Source: a virus (Duplodnaviria; Heunggongvirae; Uroviricota; Caudoviricetes). Taken from it: 7,736 bases of DNA. A program made the position numbers and the translations under genes. Below the pieces are notes generated by a model. That model was not told the DNA's origin. It made no database searches and was given only the letters and a program-made list of their open reading frames with translations. Of the stretch, positions 627-5,605 are shown one piece after another; position 1 is the stretch's first letter; every line of letters starts with the position of its first letter. The DNA is taken from IMG/VR virus record IMGVR_UViG_3300029762_000084; one strand, written 5' to 3'.

Positions 627-2573
627 TTAAAGAATAATTCTTTCAACCTTCCAAGTTGCAGATCTACTTCCTGAAATTCCAACTCCATTTGAATCTTTGA
701 GAAGAATTCTAAATGATGTTTCTGTTACCAAATCATACGTTGCATTTATTGCTGCGCCATCTCCTATCGATATTGAGATAAAATCAGGCACAACTCCAAG
801 TCCGTGAGTTATTATTTGTCCATTTGAATAAACCCCAGTTCCTATTTTAGTCGTTGCATACCCGGCATTGTTTGCAAGGACAACATTAACCGAATTTGCT
901 CCTAATTTAGCAATCTTCCTATCAGATGAAATCTCTGTAGATTGTATTGCATTATTTGAAATAACTGCATCTTTTATAGCCCTGAAATCTCCAGGTGTTC
1001 CTGATACAGCATTAACAAGTATTGCATACTGCATACTTCTATCACTTCTTTTATTGCCGAAAGCATTACCGCAAATTGTTGTCCCGGTAAATCCAGATGC
1101 TCCCGTGTTATCAAGAAGAATTCCGCACCTATATGTATTTGATGTATCAGAAGGCAAACCTATACCTCTTATGGAATTATTGGATACTATATTATTATCT
1201 GGCTTGACATTTGCATTATTGCAGTAAATGCGAATTCCAACATCACAAAATGCATCTAATACATTATCAGATATAACATTACCCGCTCCCCACACATCAA
1301 TACCCATAAACGAATCAGCACCATCTCCAAAAAATTTATTTTGAGTAACTATTGTTCCGCTACCCCTAATCAATATAGCAGGCCTTGGAATGCTTGAAGT
1401 CTTTTTGCTATCATTGTAGCCATGATTATCGTTTATATGAGATTCCCCCCCCGCACTATCTATGCAGCAATTACACGAATCTATTATATTTTTATTTATC
1501 CTTACATAGACAGAATCGTGTTTTATACCTGTAATAAAATTTGATATGGAATTTGATACAAAACTAGTTGCCTTACATGGCAATGAAACGCCATGTATAG
1601 CGTCCTTAGACGCTCCTATGGCAACAAAATGTATCCCTGTAACAATTGCTGGGTTCTCATTAGATGATGTGTCACCTATGGTAATAGCAAAAGAATTCTC
1701 ATCTTCAGGACCATCAATTGTTAATATCGTTTGTGGCGTATATCCTTGAGATATTTGCGATCCATTTCCTGAACCAAACCCTCTCATACTTACAAAAGAT
1801 GGGATTCTTAGTTTTTCTGTTACTCTACAGTTGCCCCCCCAAAAAAATTCCTCTTTAACATGGGCAGCGGCCAGCATGATTGGAATTGTATCATCTTTAA
1901 CTCCATCAAGCGTCGCTCCATAATTTCTAAGGTCATTGGTTTCATCCCCATTTAAATAACCAATACATCTCCATCCTGTTGAGGTATATCTGGCAAATTT
2001 ATCATCTGGGGGAACAGTAAAAGGAGGAACTGTCATTTCTCCTCCAGTTATTTCATTTTCATATACCCAAAACAACCCATCATAATCTTTGATTGCGCAT
2101 CGGTTGTCACGAATGATATTTTGCTTGTCATAGTTCCCACAATATGAAAAACCAGTTGCTAATTTCTGTAGATTTGTTCCTGATGCTGAGTTTATTAATG
2201 ATGCGCCATTTTCGCTAGTTAATACATTATTTAGAGGGTCAGGATCATACTTCAGCACATTAGGAAAATAGAACTGCTGCGCACCGTACGCATCATAAAC
2301 AGCCATAGAATGGCCTTGCACGGTTACGAATTTGGCAATCTGTCCGTTATATACAGGATACCCGCCAGCGTTAATGATGATTGGCTGTGCAACAGGAACG
2401 TGAGAACCGTCTTCATTCTCTACATAAACCTGAATCTGGTTTTCAGGATTTACCGGGTCAGTGTCAATTTTTCCGATATAAATTTTGCCATTGGCAACCG
2501 CTTTAAAAGAACGCGCCATAGTGAAGAGTTGCGAAGGCATGCTTACCACAACATTTGCGGTGATATCTGACAT
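627..2573 (-). CDS. Tailspike protein: P22 gp9-type N-terminal head-binding domain plus a divergent beta-helix-like receptor-binding/depolymerase domain
   Basis: From the Met at 2573 the protein begins [59 protein letters not shown]...[15 protein letters not shown]...NVLKYDPD, which closely matches the head-binding domain of P22 tailspike gp9 as I recall it. The remaining ~530 aa is N/G/S/I/T-rich and repetitive, consistent with a parallel beta-helix. GGAG sits about 8 nt upstream of the 2573 ATG; the track ORF runs to 2621, but homology favours 2573. Stop is TAA at 627-629. Confidence 0.9.
1445..1452. repeat. Homopolymer tract C8 on + strand (G8 on the tailspike coding strand)
   Basis: Read directly: gattccccccccgcac. 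It is in frame within the tailspike and encodes the Ala-Gly-Gly-Glu of ...DSAGGESH... Confidence 0.95.
1834..1847. repeat. Compound homopolymer tract C7A7 on + strand (T7G7 on the tailspike coding strand)
   Basis: Read directly: ttgcccccccaaaaaaattc. It is in frame within the tailspike and encodes ...EEFFWGGN... Confidence 0.95.
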
Positions 2574-2694
2574 TTCATTGCTCCAGACGAATGATATGAT
2601 GCAACCATGATGTGATTGCATACCGAAATGGTACTATTGAGTATTTATCCAGTAGGTTACGATGCCATTCCACCCAACTGGTGAGGCATCAAGG
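2574..2694. promoter_or_regulatory. Divergent intergenic region between tailspike and Mnt-like gene; candidate promoter/operator region
   Basis: A 121-bp non-coding gap between two divergent start codons. It contains ATGAT(G) direct repeats and a 6-bp inverted repeat, atgcaa-N11-ttgcat, at 2599-2621. I could not identify a sigma70 -35/-10 pair with confidence by eye. Confidence 0.35.
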
Positions 2695-2961
2695 ATGTAC
2701 AGCAAATACGATGAGGCGCAGTTTCACTTGAGACTTCCGCATGAACTCCACGCGAAAATTAAGCAGCGTGCGAAGATGAATAACAGATCGCTGAACTCAG
2801 AGATAATTGCAGCGATTGAAGAATCGTTGGCTAAACAAAGCTCTGCATCCGTTTACATTGACGATGCAGAGCGTATGGCAGAACAACAATCTGATATGGT
2901 TAAGAAAATGGTTTTTGAAACGCTTAAGACCATGTATAGCAATAATAAAAAGGAAACATAG
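2695..2961 (+). CDS. mnt: Mnt-like ribbon-helix-helix transcriptional repressor (Arc/Mnt family)
   Basis: The N-terminal QFHLRLPHELHAKIKQRAKMNNRSLNSEIIAAIEESL fits the Arc/Mnt RHH pattern of beta-strand plus two helices. The C-terminal DAERMAEQQSDMVKKMVFETLK closely resembles the P22 Mnt tetramerisation region (NDAERLADEQSELVKKMVFDTLK, from memory). GAGG lies 8 nt upstream of the ATG at 2695; the track's upstream ATG at 2662 has weaker support. Stop is TAG at 2959-2961. Confidence 0.8.
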   Translation: MYSKYDEAQFHLRLPHELHAKIKQRAKMNNRSLNSEIIAAIEESLAKQSSASVYIDDAERMAEQQSDMVKKMVFETLKTMYSNNKKET

Positions 2962-3031
2962 AAATCTAGTTTCCGGCTAAAATGGCATTGCCTTCATGCT
3001 ATCCTGTGAAAAACTAAGGAGAGTTAACCAT

Positions 3032-3517
3032 ATGAAAAAATTACTGTTAATTATCCCGCTTCTGCTGGTTGGATGCGCAAAAGTAAGTGACTATCAAGCA
3101 AGTTGCGAACAACGCTATCAAAAGCTTAGCGATATGGCTAATTGCCTTGATGCCAGTGTGAAGAACGACTCACGCATGGCATCAGCACCAACACCTAAAC
3201 TATATGTCCTTGCTGCAAAGATGCTCGGGCAAGGTGTCGATGAAGGCAAGATAAGTGACGCACAGGCAAGACTTGAGCTTCAGAATCTTTATGTTCAATT
3301 ACAAAGCCAAGAACAAGCCCAACAAATAGCACAAAGCCAAGCATTCCAGCAGGCTTTATTGAATTATCAGGCTGTAAACACAATGCAAGCGATCGAGCAA
3401 AAAGCGAGACAGCCTGTTATAACTCAACCCTATCCAACACGAGTTGACACTTACACAAACTGCAATTCAGGATTTGGAAACACGGTAACATGCAACAGTA
3501 GCAGTAGCATCAGATAA
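3032..3517 (+). CDS. Putative lipoprotein of unknown function (161 aa) with a Gln-rich predicted coiled-coil centre
   Basis: AAGGAG lies about 8 nt upstream of the ATG at 3032. The N-terminus MKKLLLIIPLLLVGC is a typical signal peptide with an L-V-G-C lipobox. The residue after the lipid Cys is Ala rather than Asp, suggesting outer-membrane sorting. The mature protein has four further Cys and a Q/A-rich heptad-like segment (LELQNLYVQLQSQEQAQQIAQSQAFQQALLNYQ). The track's upstream start at 2996 has no RBS. Confidence 0.75.
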   Translation: MKKLLLIIPLLLVGCAKVSDYQASCEQRYQKLSDMANCLDASVKNDSRMASAPTPKLYVLAAKMLGQGVDEGKISDAQARLELQNLYVQLQSQEQAQQIAQSQAFQQALLNYQAVNTMQAIEQKARQPVITQPYPTRVDTYTNCNSGFGNTVTCNSSSSIR

Positions 3518-3607
3518 CAATCAGCAAAGGTATCGCCTATGCAGAGGGATACGATAAACCTCGCGTTCTACATATTTGGTTTTTGCACGTTCCTGGTGTT
3601 TGAAAGG

Positions 3608-5605
3608 CTATTCTGACAACGAATCAGACTTCGCACCCTGCGTCAGTGCATTAATCGCTTTTTGCGCTTGCTGCATGGCTTTCTCAAACGCTGTCGATCC
3701 GCGTGGTGTGTTTGCCATTCGTAGCATTGCATTTCTGAATGGCTCACTCTCATAGGCGCGAGTAAGAAGTCCGTAGCTTACCGCTGCGCCAGTTGTCGCC
3801 GGGTTCATTGCTGTCCCATACCCGATAATGAACGGGATGGTTTGCTGCCCTGTTGGTGTTGTTACTGCCGCTTTTGCAGCCTGCTGCGTGGATTGCAGGT
3901 AGTTTTTCAATCCTTTCAGATAAGCAGCGTCCTGCCCCTTAAATGTGATGCCAGTCTGGTTTTGCAGGATGTTAAGCTGCCGAAGGAACTGGTCAGGGGA
4001 TCCGCCAGATTTCTCCATCGCCTTTCCAATGATGCCATTGCGCATTTGCGCCCTGCCAACACGACCAACTGAGTTATACAGCGTCTTAATTTCCGATTTG
4101 TTCTTGCTGAATAGCATGTTGTTGACAACTTCCGGCGTCAGGTCTCCTTTCATGAGAACATTCTTCAGCCTGGTATTCTTTAGTTTCGCCGCTTCGTCAG
4201 CGTAGACGGCATTGGCCTGCTGATATTTACGGAGAGTATCGTTGCCAAGATTCTGACCAATGGCACCATTGATATCGTCAGTCATTGCCTTGTAAACGCG
4301 CTGAATGGCAGCATCGGAACGGTTTGGTAACACTGGTCGCTCACCCTTCACGTCCATTCTGAACTGGCTGCGCAGGTCGCTTAATTGCTTCAAATCCAGA
4401 TTTACCGGACCATCAGGGCCAGCATTGCGAACAAGCTCATCACGATATGACTGAAGTTTTGAAATTGTCTCGTTATCAGCTACCTTACCAAGCTTCTGCA
4501 GATTAGATATCTCAGTATCAATCTGCTGAATTGCTCGCGCAGGCTGAATGTTTACTCCAGCCATAGCATTCTGAACCTGCTCCAGTCGATTACCGGCGGC
4601 ACGACGAATTCCTGATGTTTTCGCTTTAAGGCTGTCAATAACAACAGCTGGATCATACTCACCGAATTTATCAGCAAATCTCTGCACCAACTGGCTTCTC
4701 GCTTCCTGTTGCGTTGCTCTCATTCCGCTTGTGCCAGCCAGGGGGATATTTTCCGCTGTCGTCTGCGCCATTTTCCCGACGCGGGAAGTAGGCTGTAACA
4801 GGTCTGTGGTGTGCAGAGGAACTCCTTCACGCTCTGCAAATCTGATAGCCTGCTGCGCTTCTGGCGCAATAGCACCACGAACGCCACGATAAGCAGCACC
4901 TAATCCACGTCCGGCAGCGTTAATAGCACCGCCAGCCAGCACACCAACGCCTAAATCGGTGGCGAGTGCTTCCGCATCATCTTTCGCACTATTTGCAGCA
5001 AGTGATCCAACTGCGTTTTCAGCGAGAAGGCGAGTTGCACCCTGAGCAATTCGACCAGCAAGTGTTGGTGCCTGTGTTGCCGCTCTCTCAACGCCAGCAG
5101 GAGTGAGGTAAGGCAATGCTTCAGCAAATACCCTTCCCTCTGTCGTTTGTGGAGTCAGCGCGCCTTGCTGAAGGCCAAAGTCCTGCTCTAATCCCTGCGT
5201 TGTTACTCGTGGCGCTGGTTGATATGTACCATCGCCAATGCCGAGTTTACCGCCAGCCCAAGCCGCCGCGCTTGTTACAGCATCGGCAACTGATGCAGGT
5301 ATGTTTGCCACGTTCACGCCAGCCTGCACCAGTCCGCGACCAGTCTCTTTTACTGCTTCGCCAAGATCAGACATAAATCCACTTTGCTGTGGTTGTTGCT
5401 GTGCTACTGGTTGCTGTGTCTCCACTGGCTGCACAGATGGCAATGGATAGGCAGCATAGAAAGCTTGCTTAGCCTGCTCTGCATTTTCTCCGGCTTGCGG
5501 GGCCACGACTTCATTGAAGTATTGCTCCTGAGCCTGCGCTTTTTGTTCTGGTGCTAACGCCTGATACTGTGGAGAGGCGATAACATCTTTCCATGCTTTA
5601 GCCAT
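3608..5605 (-). CDS. DNA ejection (injection) protein, P22 gp16-like
   Basis: A 665-aa ORF that is last in a gp7-gp20-gp16-ordered block. Its ATG overlaps the upstream stop (TAATG at 5603-5607), with GGGGTGA upstream. The protein is Ala/Gln/Gly-rich and low-complexity. The assignment rests on synteny and size (P22 gp16 is about 609 aa, from memory), not on a sequence search. Confidence 0.65.
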   Translation of the reverse strand: MAKAWKDVIASPQYQALAPEQKAQAQEQYFNEVVAPQAGENAEQAKQAFYAAYPLPSVQPVETQQPVAQQQPQQSGFMSDLGEAVKETGRGLVQAGVNVANIPASVADAVTSAAAWAGGKLGIGDGTYQPAPRVTTQGLEQDFGLQQGALTPQTTEGRVFAEALPYLTPAGVERAATQAPTLAGRIAQGATRLLAENAVGSLAANSAKDDAEALATDLGVGVLAGGAINAAGRGLGAAYRGVRGAIAPEAQQAIRFAEREGVPLHTTDLLQPTSRVGKMAQTTAENIPLAGTSGMRATQQEARSQLVQRFADKFGEYDPAVVIDSLKAKTSGIRRAAGNRLEQVQNAMAGVNIQPARAIQQIDTEISNLQKLGKVADNETISKLQSYRDELVRNAGPDGPVNLDLKQLSDLRSQFRMDVKGERPVLPNRSDAAIQRVYKAMTDDINGAIGQNLGNDTLRKYQQANAVYADEAAKLKNTRLKNVLMKGDLTPEVVNNMLFSKNKSEIKTLYNSVGRVGRAQMRNGIIGKAMEKSGGSPDQFLRQLNILQNQTGITFKGQDAAYLKGLKNYLQSTQQAAKAAVTTPTGQQTIPFIIGYGTAMNPATTGAAVSYGLLTRAYESEPFRNAMLRMANTPRGSTAFEKAMQQAQKAINALTQGAKSDSLSE

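Follow-up and report, generated by a model that had tools for sequence, protein, structure and literature searches.

An orphan Mnt-family repressor gene divergent from the tailspike gene of a P22-like phage, and its predicted class-specific operator

The window analysed here, that is, the whole 7,736-nucleotide (nt) stretch of IMG/VR record IMGVR_UViG_3300029762_000084 (Caudoviricetes), covers the end of the late operon of a P22-like E. coli phage (Lederbergvirus), in which a gene for a Mnt-family repressor (2695-2961, plus strand, 88 amino acids (aa), stop codon included in the coordinates) stands divergent from the tailspike gene (627-2573, minus strand) across a spacer of 121 bp (2574-2694). 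A sequence-only reading of this stretch had pointed to the divergent pair and to the absence of arc and ant, and both observations hold: tblastn searches with P22 Arc and Ant over the window match only the Mnt open reading frame (ORF) itself. We found that orphan mnt genes of this kind are under ordinary purifying selection, and that each class of Mnt reading head has its own palindrome, a putative operator, at the exact position of Omnt in P22. In the window this position is held by ATACCGAAATGGTAC (2620-2634, core TACC-N5-GGTA, 17-bp register 2619-2635). The arrangement itself has been published already; the class-specific operator prediction and the evidence of selection are what this analysis adds. 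With somewhat better than even confidence, we read the gene as encoding a functional repressor of the Mnt family that belongs to a separate specificity class, regulates its own small prophage-expressed unit and silences residual tailspike-directed initiation through 2620-2634.

The Mnt-type protein and its predicted operator

The product of the mnt gene matches PF03869 (Arc; 54.8 bits against a cut-off of 20.4, E = 8e-15) and, over residues 57-81, PF11423 (Repressor_Mnt; 46.1 bits against a cut-off of 20.9, E = 4e-12), as well as the structures of the N-terminal (PDB 1mnt, residues 6-78, E = 5.7e-19) and C-terminal (PDB 1qey, residues 56-83, E = 1.2e-6) domains of P22 Mnt, to which it is 47% identical over 76 aa. 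The codons for the Mnt-type tetramerisation helix (residues 56-83) lie at 2860-2943 on the plus strand, and 18 of the C-terminal 34 residues are identical to P22 Mnt, in agreement with the Mnt-like C-terminal region proposed earlier. Alignment with P22 Mnt and Arc, which had been suggested as a check, places the 42-residue ribbon-helix-helix (RHH) domain at equal distance from the two (17/42 identical to each), and the Mnt character of the protein comes mainly from its C-terminal helix. Mnt of the P22 type is a tetramer in solution and occupies a single operator as two dimers; the conserved Mnt-type C-terminal domain makes tetramer formation probable here too.

Arc and Mnt are textbook models of beta-sheet DNA recognition. 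P22 Mnt reads its operator with His6, Asn8 and Arg10, together with Arg2 of the N-terminal arm, and this combination gives Omnt specificity; Arc uses Gln9, Asn11 and Arg13 on a 21-bp operator with TAGA boxes. The DNA-reading strand of the window protein, AQFHLRLP (codons 2716-2739, plus strand, from the alignment with Arc and Mnt), shares five of eight residues with Arc (PQFNLRWP) and three of eight with P22 Mnt (PHFNFRMP). The claim that this strand resembles Arc more than Mnt therefore stands by residue count, but its centre is a histidine, where both Arc and Mnt have asparagine. Taking the base-contact residues, on the basis of published Arc and Mnt work, to be Gln9, His11 and Arg13, we predict a Q-H-R head that is neither the Q-N-R of Arc nor the H-N-R of Mnt. 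The P22 Mnt head is absent from the window protein, which also has an unrelated N-terminal arm and is predicted to be a Mnt-family member of different specificity.

To place this head among its relatives, we collected ~310 loci with P22, Gally, VSe13 and window Mnt as queries, and classed them by their N-terminal strand and by the sequence in the Omnt register. Loci of the P22 type (HFNFRM) have the palindrome GTCCACnGTGGAC, exact in 68/81, with ant present in 80/81 and arc in most. The QFNLR type (Gally, L, ST64T, SE1) has GACCACnGTGGTC, exact in 62/68, and the QFHL type, comprising the window, Sf101, IME10 and VSe13, has TACC-N5-GGTA, exact in 150/160; in these two orphan classes arc-ant is never divergent from mnt. 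Most exceptions are one base off the motif of their own class, a subset of HFNFRM loci in which mnt lies downstream of another mnt paralog (CUS-3 type) has no upstream palindrome, and none of the ~310 loci carries the motif of another class. Species representatives of Serratia and Escherichia sp. obey the QFHL rule, while those of Pluralibacter and Pectobacterium obey the P22 rule and have arc. The Citrobacter representative has a mnt pseudogene and a QFHL motif with one mismatch, its proximal arm being mutated, and Phlomobacter shows a fourth pairing, QFNFRM with ATATCACCGTGATAT. The earlier suggestion that operator specificity differs from that for Omnt is very probably right, with ATACCGAAATGGTAC standing against GGTCCACGGTGGACC of P22 and the sequence tracking head class across these loci. 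The natural pairs in the same register (H-N-R with GGTCCAC, Q-N-R with AGACCAC, Q-H-R with rTACC and perhaps Q-N-R(F) with TATCAC) amount to three, possibly four, head/operator combinations that are directly testable and could refine the recognition code.

The spacer itself was compared across 58 unique upstream regions of the QFHL class, drawn from 161 loci. The mnt-proximal ~75 nt (from CATACC to the ATG) are conserved throughout and align gap-free with the experimentally annotated Pmnt/Omnt region of P22; the tailspike-proximal part comes in several unrelated versions with little in common beyond the Shine-Dalgarno (SD) sequence TGCTCCAGA, and the homology boundary among the variants is exactly the distal edge of the palindrome. 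ATACCGAAATGGTAC keeps the same distance to ATTGAG as Omnt does in P22. This hexamer, which marks the -35 element of Pmnt, is common to all classes, and the 17 bp just upstream of its ATTG vary by class (AGGTCCACcGTGGACCT in P22, CATACCGAAATGGTACT in the window). The P22 Omnt sequence was not found in the window. Neither a TAGA nor a TCTA box was found in the spacer (2574-2694), which therefore holds no Arc-type 21-bp operator, and the window palindrome follows the 17-bp Omnt register and not that of Oarc.

Both the window and the complete genome of Sf101 contain a single copy of the predicted operator, and the class palindrome is likewise single-copy in the complete genome of Gally; no further copies, which might have marked a distant target, were found at ≤2 mismatches in either complete genome. 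These two genomes also contain no Arc or Ant homologue anywhere, and the target must therefore be local: the only recognisable target of the orphan mnt, as far as sequence can tell, is the site beside its own promoter and the tailspike 5' untranslated region (UTR). An exact scan of IMG/VR for ATACCGAAAYGGTAC returned at least 118 new loci, 53 beside a QFHL-type mnt and 65 on unrelated contigs, and in none of the matches listed did it stand in front of ant. On six unrelated viral contigs (L317, L322, L345, L356, L383 and L392) the 15-mer GTACCGTTTCGGTAT is present twice, 515 bp apart; in L317 each copy immediately precedes a small ORF, and the pair of ORFs looks paralogous. A link of this doubled arrangement with Mnt is improbable.

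All classes keep Pmnt elements, the -35 equivalent as TTGAG, TTGTG or TTGTT. In the window the -35-like hexamer TTGAGT (2637-2642, plus strand) is homologous to TTGAGA of P22 Pmnt, and the -10-like hexamer TACGAT (2658-2663, plus strand), which corresponds to TATCAT in P22, falls inside TTACGATGCCATTCC, the most invariant stretch of the 58 unique spacers. The two hexamers are 17 bp apart both in P22 and in VSe13-type spacers. The hexamers of Pant, in contrast, pass from TTGACA/TATATT in P22 through TCGGCA/TATATC in phage L to ATGGCA/TAAATA in the window, and the Pant equivalent looks decayed in both the window and phage L. The start codon at 2695 is favoured by the SD sequence GAGG (2683-2686, plus strand, 8 nt before the ATG), which is kept in both orphan classes, and by an N-terminus, MVYSKYDE, that is kept as far as Serratia. 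A 99-aa ORF from an in-frame ATG at 2662 was rejected on account of frame-breaking indels within 2662-2694 in some relatives.

Prevalence, selection and links to ant modules

The arrangement is neither rare nor undescribed. Of 5,426 complete E. coli genomes, 231 carry at least 80% of the spacer and gene, the latter annotated as 'Arc family DNA-binding protein', so that ~4% of complete E. coli genomes carry an orphan repressor of this type; intact ORFs are found in hundreds of genomes of Escherichia, Shigella, Salmonella and Serratia. The Mnt type of the window is also that of phages Sf101 and IME10, VSe13 Mnt is 64% identical to it and of the same reading-head class, and the tailspike start and lipoprotein region of the window recur in Gally and vB_EcoP-720R6 (in which the gene is annotated 'Mnt'). 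In E. coli strain B7A, whose prophage is drawn in Fig. 3 of the paper that defines the 'ant moron' between genes 16 and 9 (PMC2629481), a 1.2-kb region of the window recurs at 97% identity. The same paper describes ST64T, ST104 and Para1 as having only mnt and one unknown gene in the ant moron, and the mnt-only arrangement of phage L is covered by PMC8022706.

Close relatives are encoded on 248 IMG/VR stretches, and we counted architectures in the best 80 of these. The spacer is exactly 121 bp in 68/80, a geometry that holds despite differing tailspike heads (55-100% identity), gp16 types and downstream genes, and none of the 80 has arc or ant within 5 kb. Likewise, in 87 loci of the QFHLRLP class the only Arc match was the Mnt ORF itself. 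Over 78 codons, the median pairwise ratio of non-synonymous to synonymous substitution rates (dN/dS) is 0.093 for QFHL, 0.096 for QFNLR and 0.081 for P22-type mnt; the orphan genes are under ordinary purifying selection, like those of the P22 type.

The related genomes also speak to the proposal that an ant or arc homologue just outside the arrangement would mark it as a simple deletion remnant, and they do so in both directions. Three relatives (L347, L423 and L299) have a full arc-ant module on the far side of a QFHL- or QFNL-type mnt, with the cassette of mnt, operator and tailspike UTR still abutting the tailspike. In a fourth, L283, a C-terminal ant fragment, 93% identical to P22 Ant 191-300, lies between operator and tailspike. 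We rejected this as decisive proof of a simple arc-ant deletion, the fragment being joined at the usual tailspike-UTR hairpin segment, and the junction suggests mosaic recombination rather than an ancestral state. The cassette is tied to ant modules by its history and has probably lost arc-ant, but its conservation and the purifying selection on the gene do not agree with a mere remnant; by its sequence, the mnt-operator cassette is a conserved unit and not a recent deletion scar.

Candidate roles of the cassette

In the reading that we favour, a functional RHH repressor, tetrameric through its Mnt-type C-terminal helix and equipped with a Gln9-His11-Arg13 head, would bind the one operator at 2620-2634, immediately upstream of its own -35 element and at the head of the tailspike 5' UTR, as Omnt is placed in P22. 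With the arc-ant segment that Omnt and Pant govern in P22 missing, and with the Pant equivalent apparently decayed, the repressor would set transcription of its own unit, consisting of mnt and here probably also of the lipoprotein-like gene that follows it, and would silence, in the lysogen, any residual tailspike initiation arising in the spacer. The tailspike made in lytic growth would come from read-through of the late operon.

Expression data are available for a relative of the QFNLR class with the same architecture, the prophage Gally, which has been studied in LF82 lysogens (PMC9928086). Inside macrophages, Gally mnt is up ~40-fold (log2 fold change 5.3) and the tailspike ~20-fold (log2 fold change 4.4), while the adjacent injection-protein genes are flat or repressed; GALLYPH_13, a lipoprotein gene 96% identical to that of the window, is near the accessory-gene ('moron') threshold in the LB lysogen and is also induced in macrophages (PMC9928086). 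These data show the orphan mnt to be regulated and the region to be capable of transcription independent of the late operon, and they hint that the region can switch on the tailspike in a lysogen. This co-induction, together with a site lying between a Pmnt-like -35 element and the tailspike 5' UTR, makes it plausible that the protein controls its own or tailspike expression, as had been suggested from the sequence.

A number of observations weigh against a working repressor with this operator. The predicted site is only partly symmetric (4+4 bp, or 5+5) and weaker than that of P22, its distal arm is mismatched in 10/160 QFHL loci, and a 4-bp inverted repeat alone is expected by chance within 121 bp. 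The Pmnt-like hexamers are just 15 bp apart in the spacer type of the window, no promoter was called at them by a consensus scan, and the scan, over 2400-3700, returned 2 promoter-like sites against 2.7 expected. The association of head and palindrome rests on 3-4 lineages rather than on many independent events, and for the QFHL class we infer DNA binding, promoter use and the direction of regulation from sequence. As for Gally, its mnt is at background level in LB stationary phase, and deletion of mnt left macrophage survival, the sole phenotype assayed, unchanged (PMC9928086).

Instead of serving its own unit, the cassette could be a dedicated gate governing, independently of the late operon, any transcription that runs into the tailspike gene or begins there, so that a prophage could express its tailspike conditionally; we regard this as possible but unlikely. 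Such a gate would work either as a roadblock or by repressing a weak promoter derived from Pant. Bound repressors are poor roadblocks for antiterminated late transcription. As to the second mode, a weak minus-strand candidate, ATGGCA-17-AATACT, would, like Pant in P22, have its start point within the operator, but it matches only 8/12 positions, and the Pant hexamers look decayed; the scan of 2400-3700 called neither this candidate nor any other minus-strand, tailspike-facing promoter, and none in the window spacer is convincing. The only promoter-like site of the scan that falls in or beside the spacer is CTGACA-17-AATGAT (2567-2595), on the plus strand. The gate gains from the cassette abutting the tailspike 5' UTR even where a complete arc-ant module lies beyond it, from the note in PMC2629481 of a possible influence of Mnt and Arc on late read-through into gene 9, and from the macrophage induction of the Gally tailspike and mnt, without that of the injection-protein genes. 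The last point is weakened by GALLYPH_14, an extra, highly expressed gene on the same strand in Gally that is missing from the window, from which read-through could reach the Gally tailspike. By extension from the Gally pattern, the cassette might even be, instead of an immI relic, a stand-alone, condition-responsive switch welded to the tailspike, through which a prophage expresses the tailspike and nearby accessory genes independently of the late operon. We consider this rather improbable; if it were true, the head/operator classes would be insulated versions of one switch and a natural set of three to four members for beta-sheet/DNA recognition.

A role in trans is very doubtful in our judgement: a resident Mnt would repress Pant of superinfecting phages that carry Ant under the same operator class, and would so shield the lysogen from Ant-mediated induction. 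P22 Mnt does act in trans on Pant, the orphan genes are under purifying selection despite having no target gene in cis, and several specificity classes are what would be expected of an immunity determinant. Carriers of the matching target are nevertheless hard to find, as arc-ant is divergent from the operator in 0 of ~160 QFHL and 68 QFNLR loci, the operator stands beside QFHL-type mnt or on unrelated contigs and never before ant among the IMG/VR matches listed, and the ant region of CUS-3 contains none of the three class palindromes. We think it highly improbable that the gene is a functionless leftover of a degraded immI region. That an ant-less mnt might be a relic is an open question in the genome papers of phages L, ST64T and epsilon34, and was raised for L in PMC8022706; the missing arc and ant, the decayed look of the Pant equivalent, the truncated ant in L283, the Citrobacter pseudogene with its mutated operator arm and the Gally deletion without phenotype in one assay (PMC9928086) are in keeping with it. 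Decay is hard to reconcile with dN/dS of ~0.09, equal to that of P22-type mnt, with ORFs intact across four genera, with a promoter, SD sequence and palindrome conserved amid mosaic flanks, and with the strong, ~40-fold regulation of Gally mnt (PMC9928086). The selection and operator data instead say that the ant-less mnt is maintained. The current understanding of P22-like phages is unchanged by this unless a new role is shown experimentally.

Further spacer features, neighbouring genes and known systems

The tailspike start at 2573 was set by tblastn alignment with residues 1-112 of P22 gp9, and its SD sequence, GGAG (2581-2584, minus strand), lies 7 nt before the ATG within TGCTCCAGA, which is common to most spacer variants. 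Further into the tailspike 5' UTR, an inverted repeat, ATGCAACCA-N5-TGATTGCAT (2599-2621, minus strand), adjoins the operator. As minus-strand RNA it would form a 9-bp stem with one G-U pair, and owing to G-U pairing it pairs better on the tailspike-sense strand; the mismatch becomes a Watson-Crick pair in natural variants, from either arm, Escherichia sp. E1V33 has a doubly changed repeat (ATTCAAT...ATTGAAT) at the equivalent place, and unrelated spacer versions carry other hairpins there (CCGCAGC...GCTACGG). With a folding energy short of significance (z = -1.3), the status of this hairpin is uncertain. A perfect 6-bp inverted repeat, GATGCC...GGCATC (2661-2666 and 2685-2690), brackets the mnt leader, its first arm overlapping the -10-like hexamer and its second the SD sequence. 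It is kept in both orphan classes and absent from P22, and may form a hairpin in the RNA of longer transcripts or be bound by some other factor. Folding of the 2599-2621 repeat, of the GATGCC/GGCATC leader and of their VSe13 and E1V33 counterparts gave z values of -0.2 to -1.6, none of them significant, and an Rfam search at E ≤ 1 over 2300-3700 found no match to a sar-like or other known RNA.

Several relatives have enlarged spacers of 654-1457 bp (usually 121-135 bp), the extra sequence lying between the tailspike start and the operator. The insert is a 166-aa ORF in L028, L237, L244 and L250 and a 179-aa ORF in L036, L044 and L059, all on the mnt strand and HNH/homing-endonuclease-like as judged by eye; in L046 it has transposase-like ORFs and looks like an insertion sequence. 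These inserts sit at the very start of the tailspike gene, with the first tailspike codons duplicated, and leave operator, Pmnt and mnt untouched.

A terminator-like element on the minus strand (2947-2974) overlaps the mnt stop codon; it consists of a GGAAAC/GTTTCC stem enclosing a loop of 11 nt, with TTTTTATTATT next to it on the minus strand. A loop of this length exceeds what the terminator scan can call, and a bidirectional terminator is annotated at the matching position in phage L. The element would stop non-antiterminated transcription passing through mnt toward the tailspike. Beyond it, 70 nt downstream of mnt, lies a lipoprotein-like accessory gene (3032-3517, plus strand, 161 aa) with the lipobox LLVGC. 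It matches phrog_6067 (function unknown) over its full length, received no Pfam or NCBIfam assignment, and is found in about half of QFHLRLP loci, in the slot held by sieA in P22. No plus-strand terminator was called between the two genes in the scan of 2400-3700, and the lipoprotein-like gene may be co-transcribed with mnt. The homologues of P22 ejection-protein genes 16, 20 and 7 are all on the minus strand, that of gene 16 at 3608-5605. Flipped, the gene order is that of P22, 7-20-16, accessory genes, mnt and 9, with arc-ant missing; the ant moron slot between the gene 16 and gene 9 homologues is occupied by mnt and the lipoprotein-like gene.

The tailspike begins with a P22-type PF09008 head-binding domain (E = 2e-66) and has an unrelated receptor-binding part. 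On its other side, an integrase gene (plus strand) runs off the left edge of the window and ends at 545; we considered and rejected a truncated integrase, as the gene merely continues past the window start. Integrase and tailspike (minus strand, ending at 627) are convergent with 81 bp between them, and O-antigen-modification genes are absent from this interval. The order looks like that of a circular or virion genome and not of an integrated prophage, in which case attP should lie there or just beyond.

Of the known systems, immI of P22 (mnt - Pmnt/Oarc/Pant/Omnt - arc - sar - ant) is alike in the RHH domain and Mnt C-terminal tetramerisation helix of its repressor, in its location between genes 16 and 9 or their homologues, where mnt points away from the tailspike, and in a homologous promoter region with the ATTGAG -35 and a palindrome in the Omnt register. 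The window differs in having no arc, ant or sar and no conserved strong Pant, in an N-terminal arm of MYSKYDEA (ARDDP in P22 Mnt) beside its Q-H-R head, and in the less symmetric TACC-N5-GGTA, as against GGTCCACnGTGGACC.

The ant morons of CUS-3 type resemble the window through L347 and L423, in which a QFHL-type cassette lies directly upstream of the tailspike. Beside it stands a CUS-3-like module that comprises ant, another gene resembling ant, a small Arc-like gene and two more paralogs of Mnt; the cassette next to the tailspike is all that the window has of this arrangement. In CUS-3, a PQVNLRLP paralog is present besides a mnt of P22 type, and the phage is said to lack arc (PMC2629481). 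Upstream of ant, in CUS-3 (L312 6640-6800, minus strand) and in L347 (7913-8053), we observed an Arc-like RHH ORF of 46 aa (MKVKTLRMPEKLEK...) that has no annotation; in CUS-3 it lies inside the feature annotated 'bsq2 boundary sequence'.

Closer in architecture are the Salmonella phages L, ST64T, ST104 and SE1 and the E. coli phage Gally, in which 135-146 bp separate mnt from the divergent tailspike gene, and arc and ant are missing. They share with the window the Pmnt elements, the GATGCC...GGCATC leader and purifying selection on mnt, and Gally also has the lipoprotein gene. Their Mnt proteins, however, are only 54-58% identical to that of the window, with a PQFNLRLP head (Q-N-R, as in Arc) and the palindrome AAGACCACnGTGGTCTT, and the tailspike-proximal half of the spacer is unrelated. 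Arc, finally, has the RHH fold and the strand QF.LR.P in common with the window protein, sharing the equivalents of Gln9 and Arg13; it is a dimeric protein of 53 aa without the tetramerisation helix, whereas the window protein has 88 aa and a Mnt C-terminal domain, and the central contact of Arc is Asn11 where the window protein has histidine.

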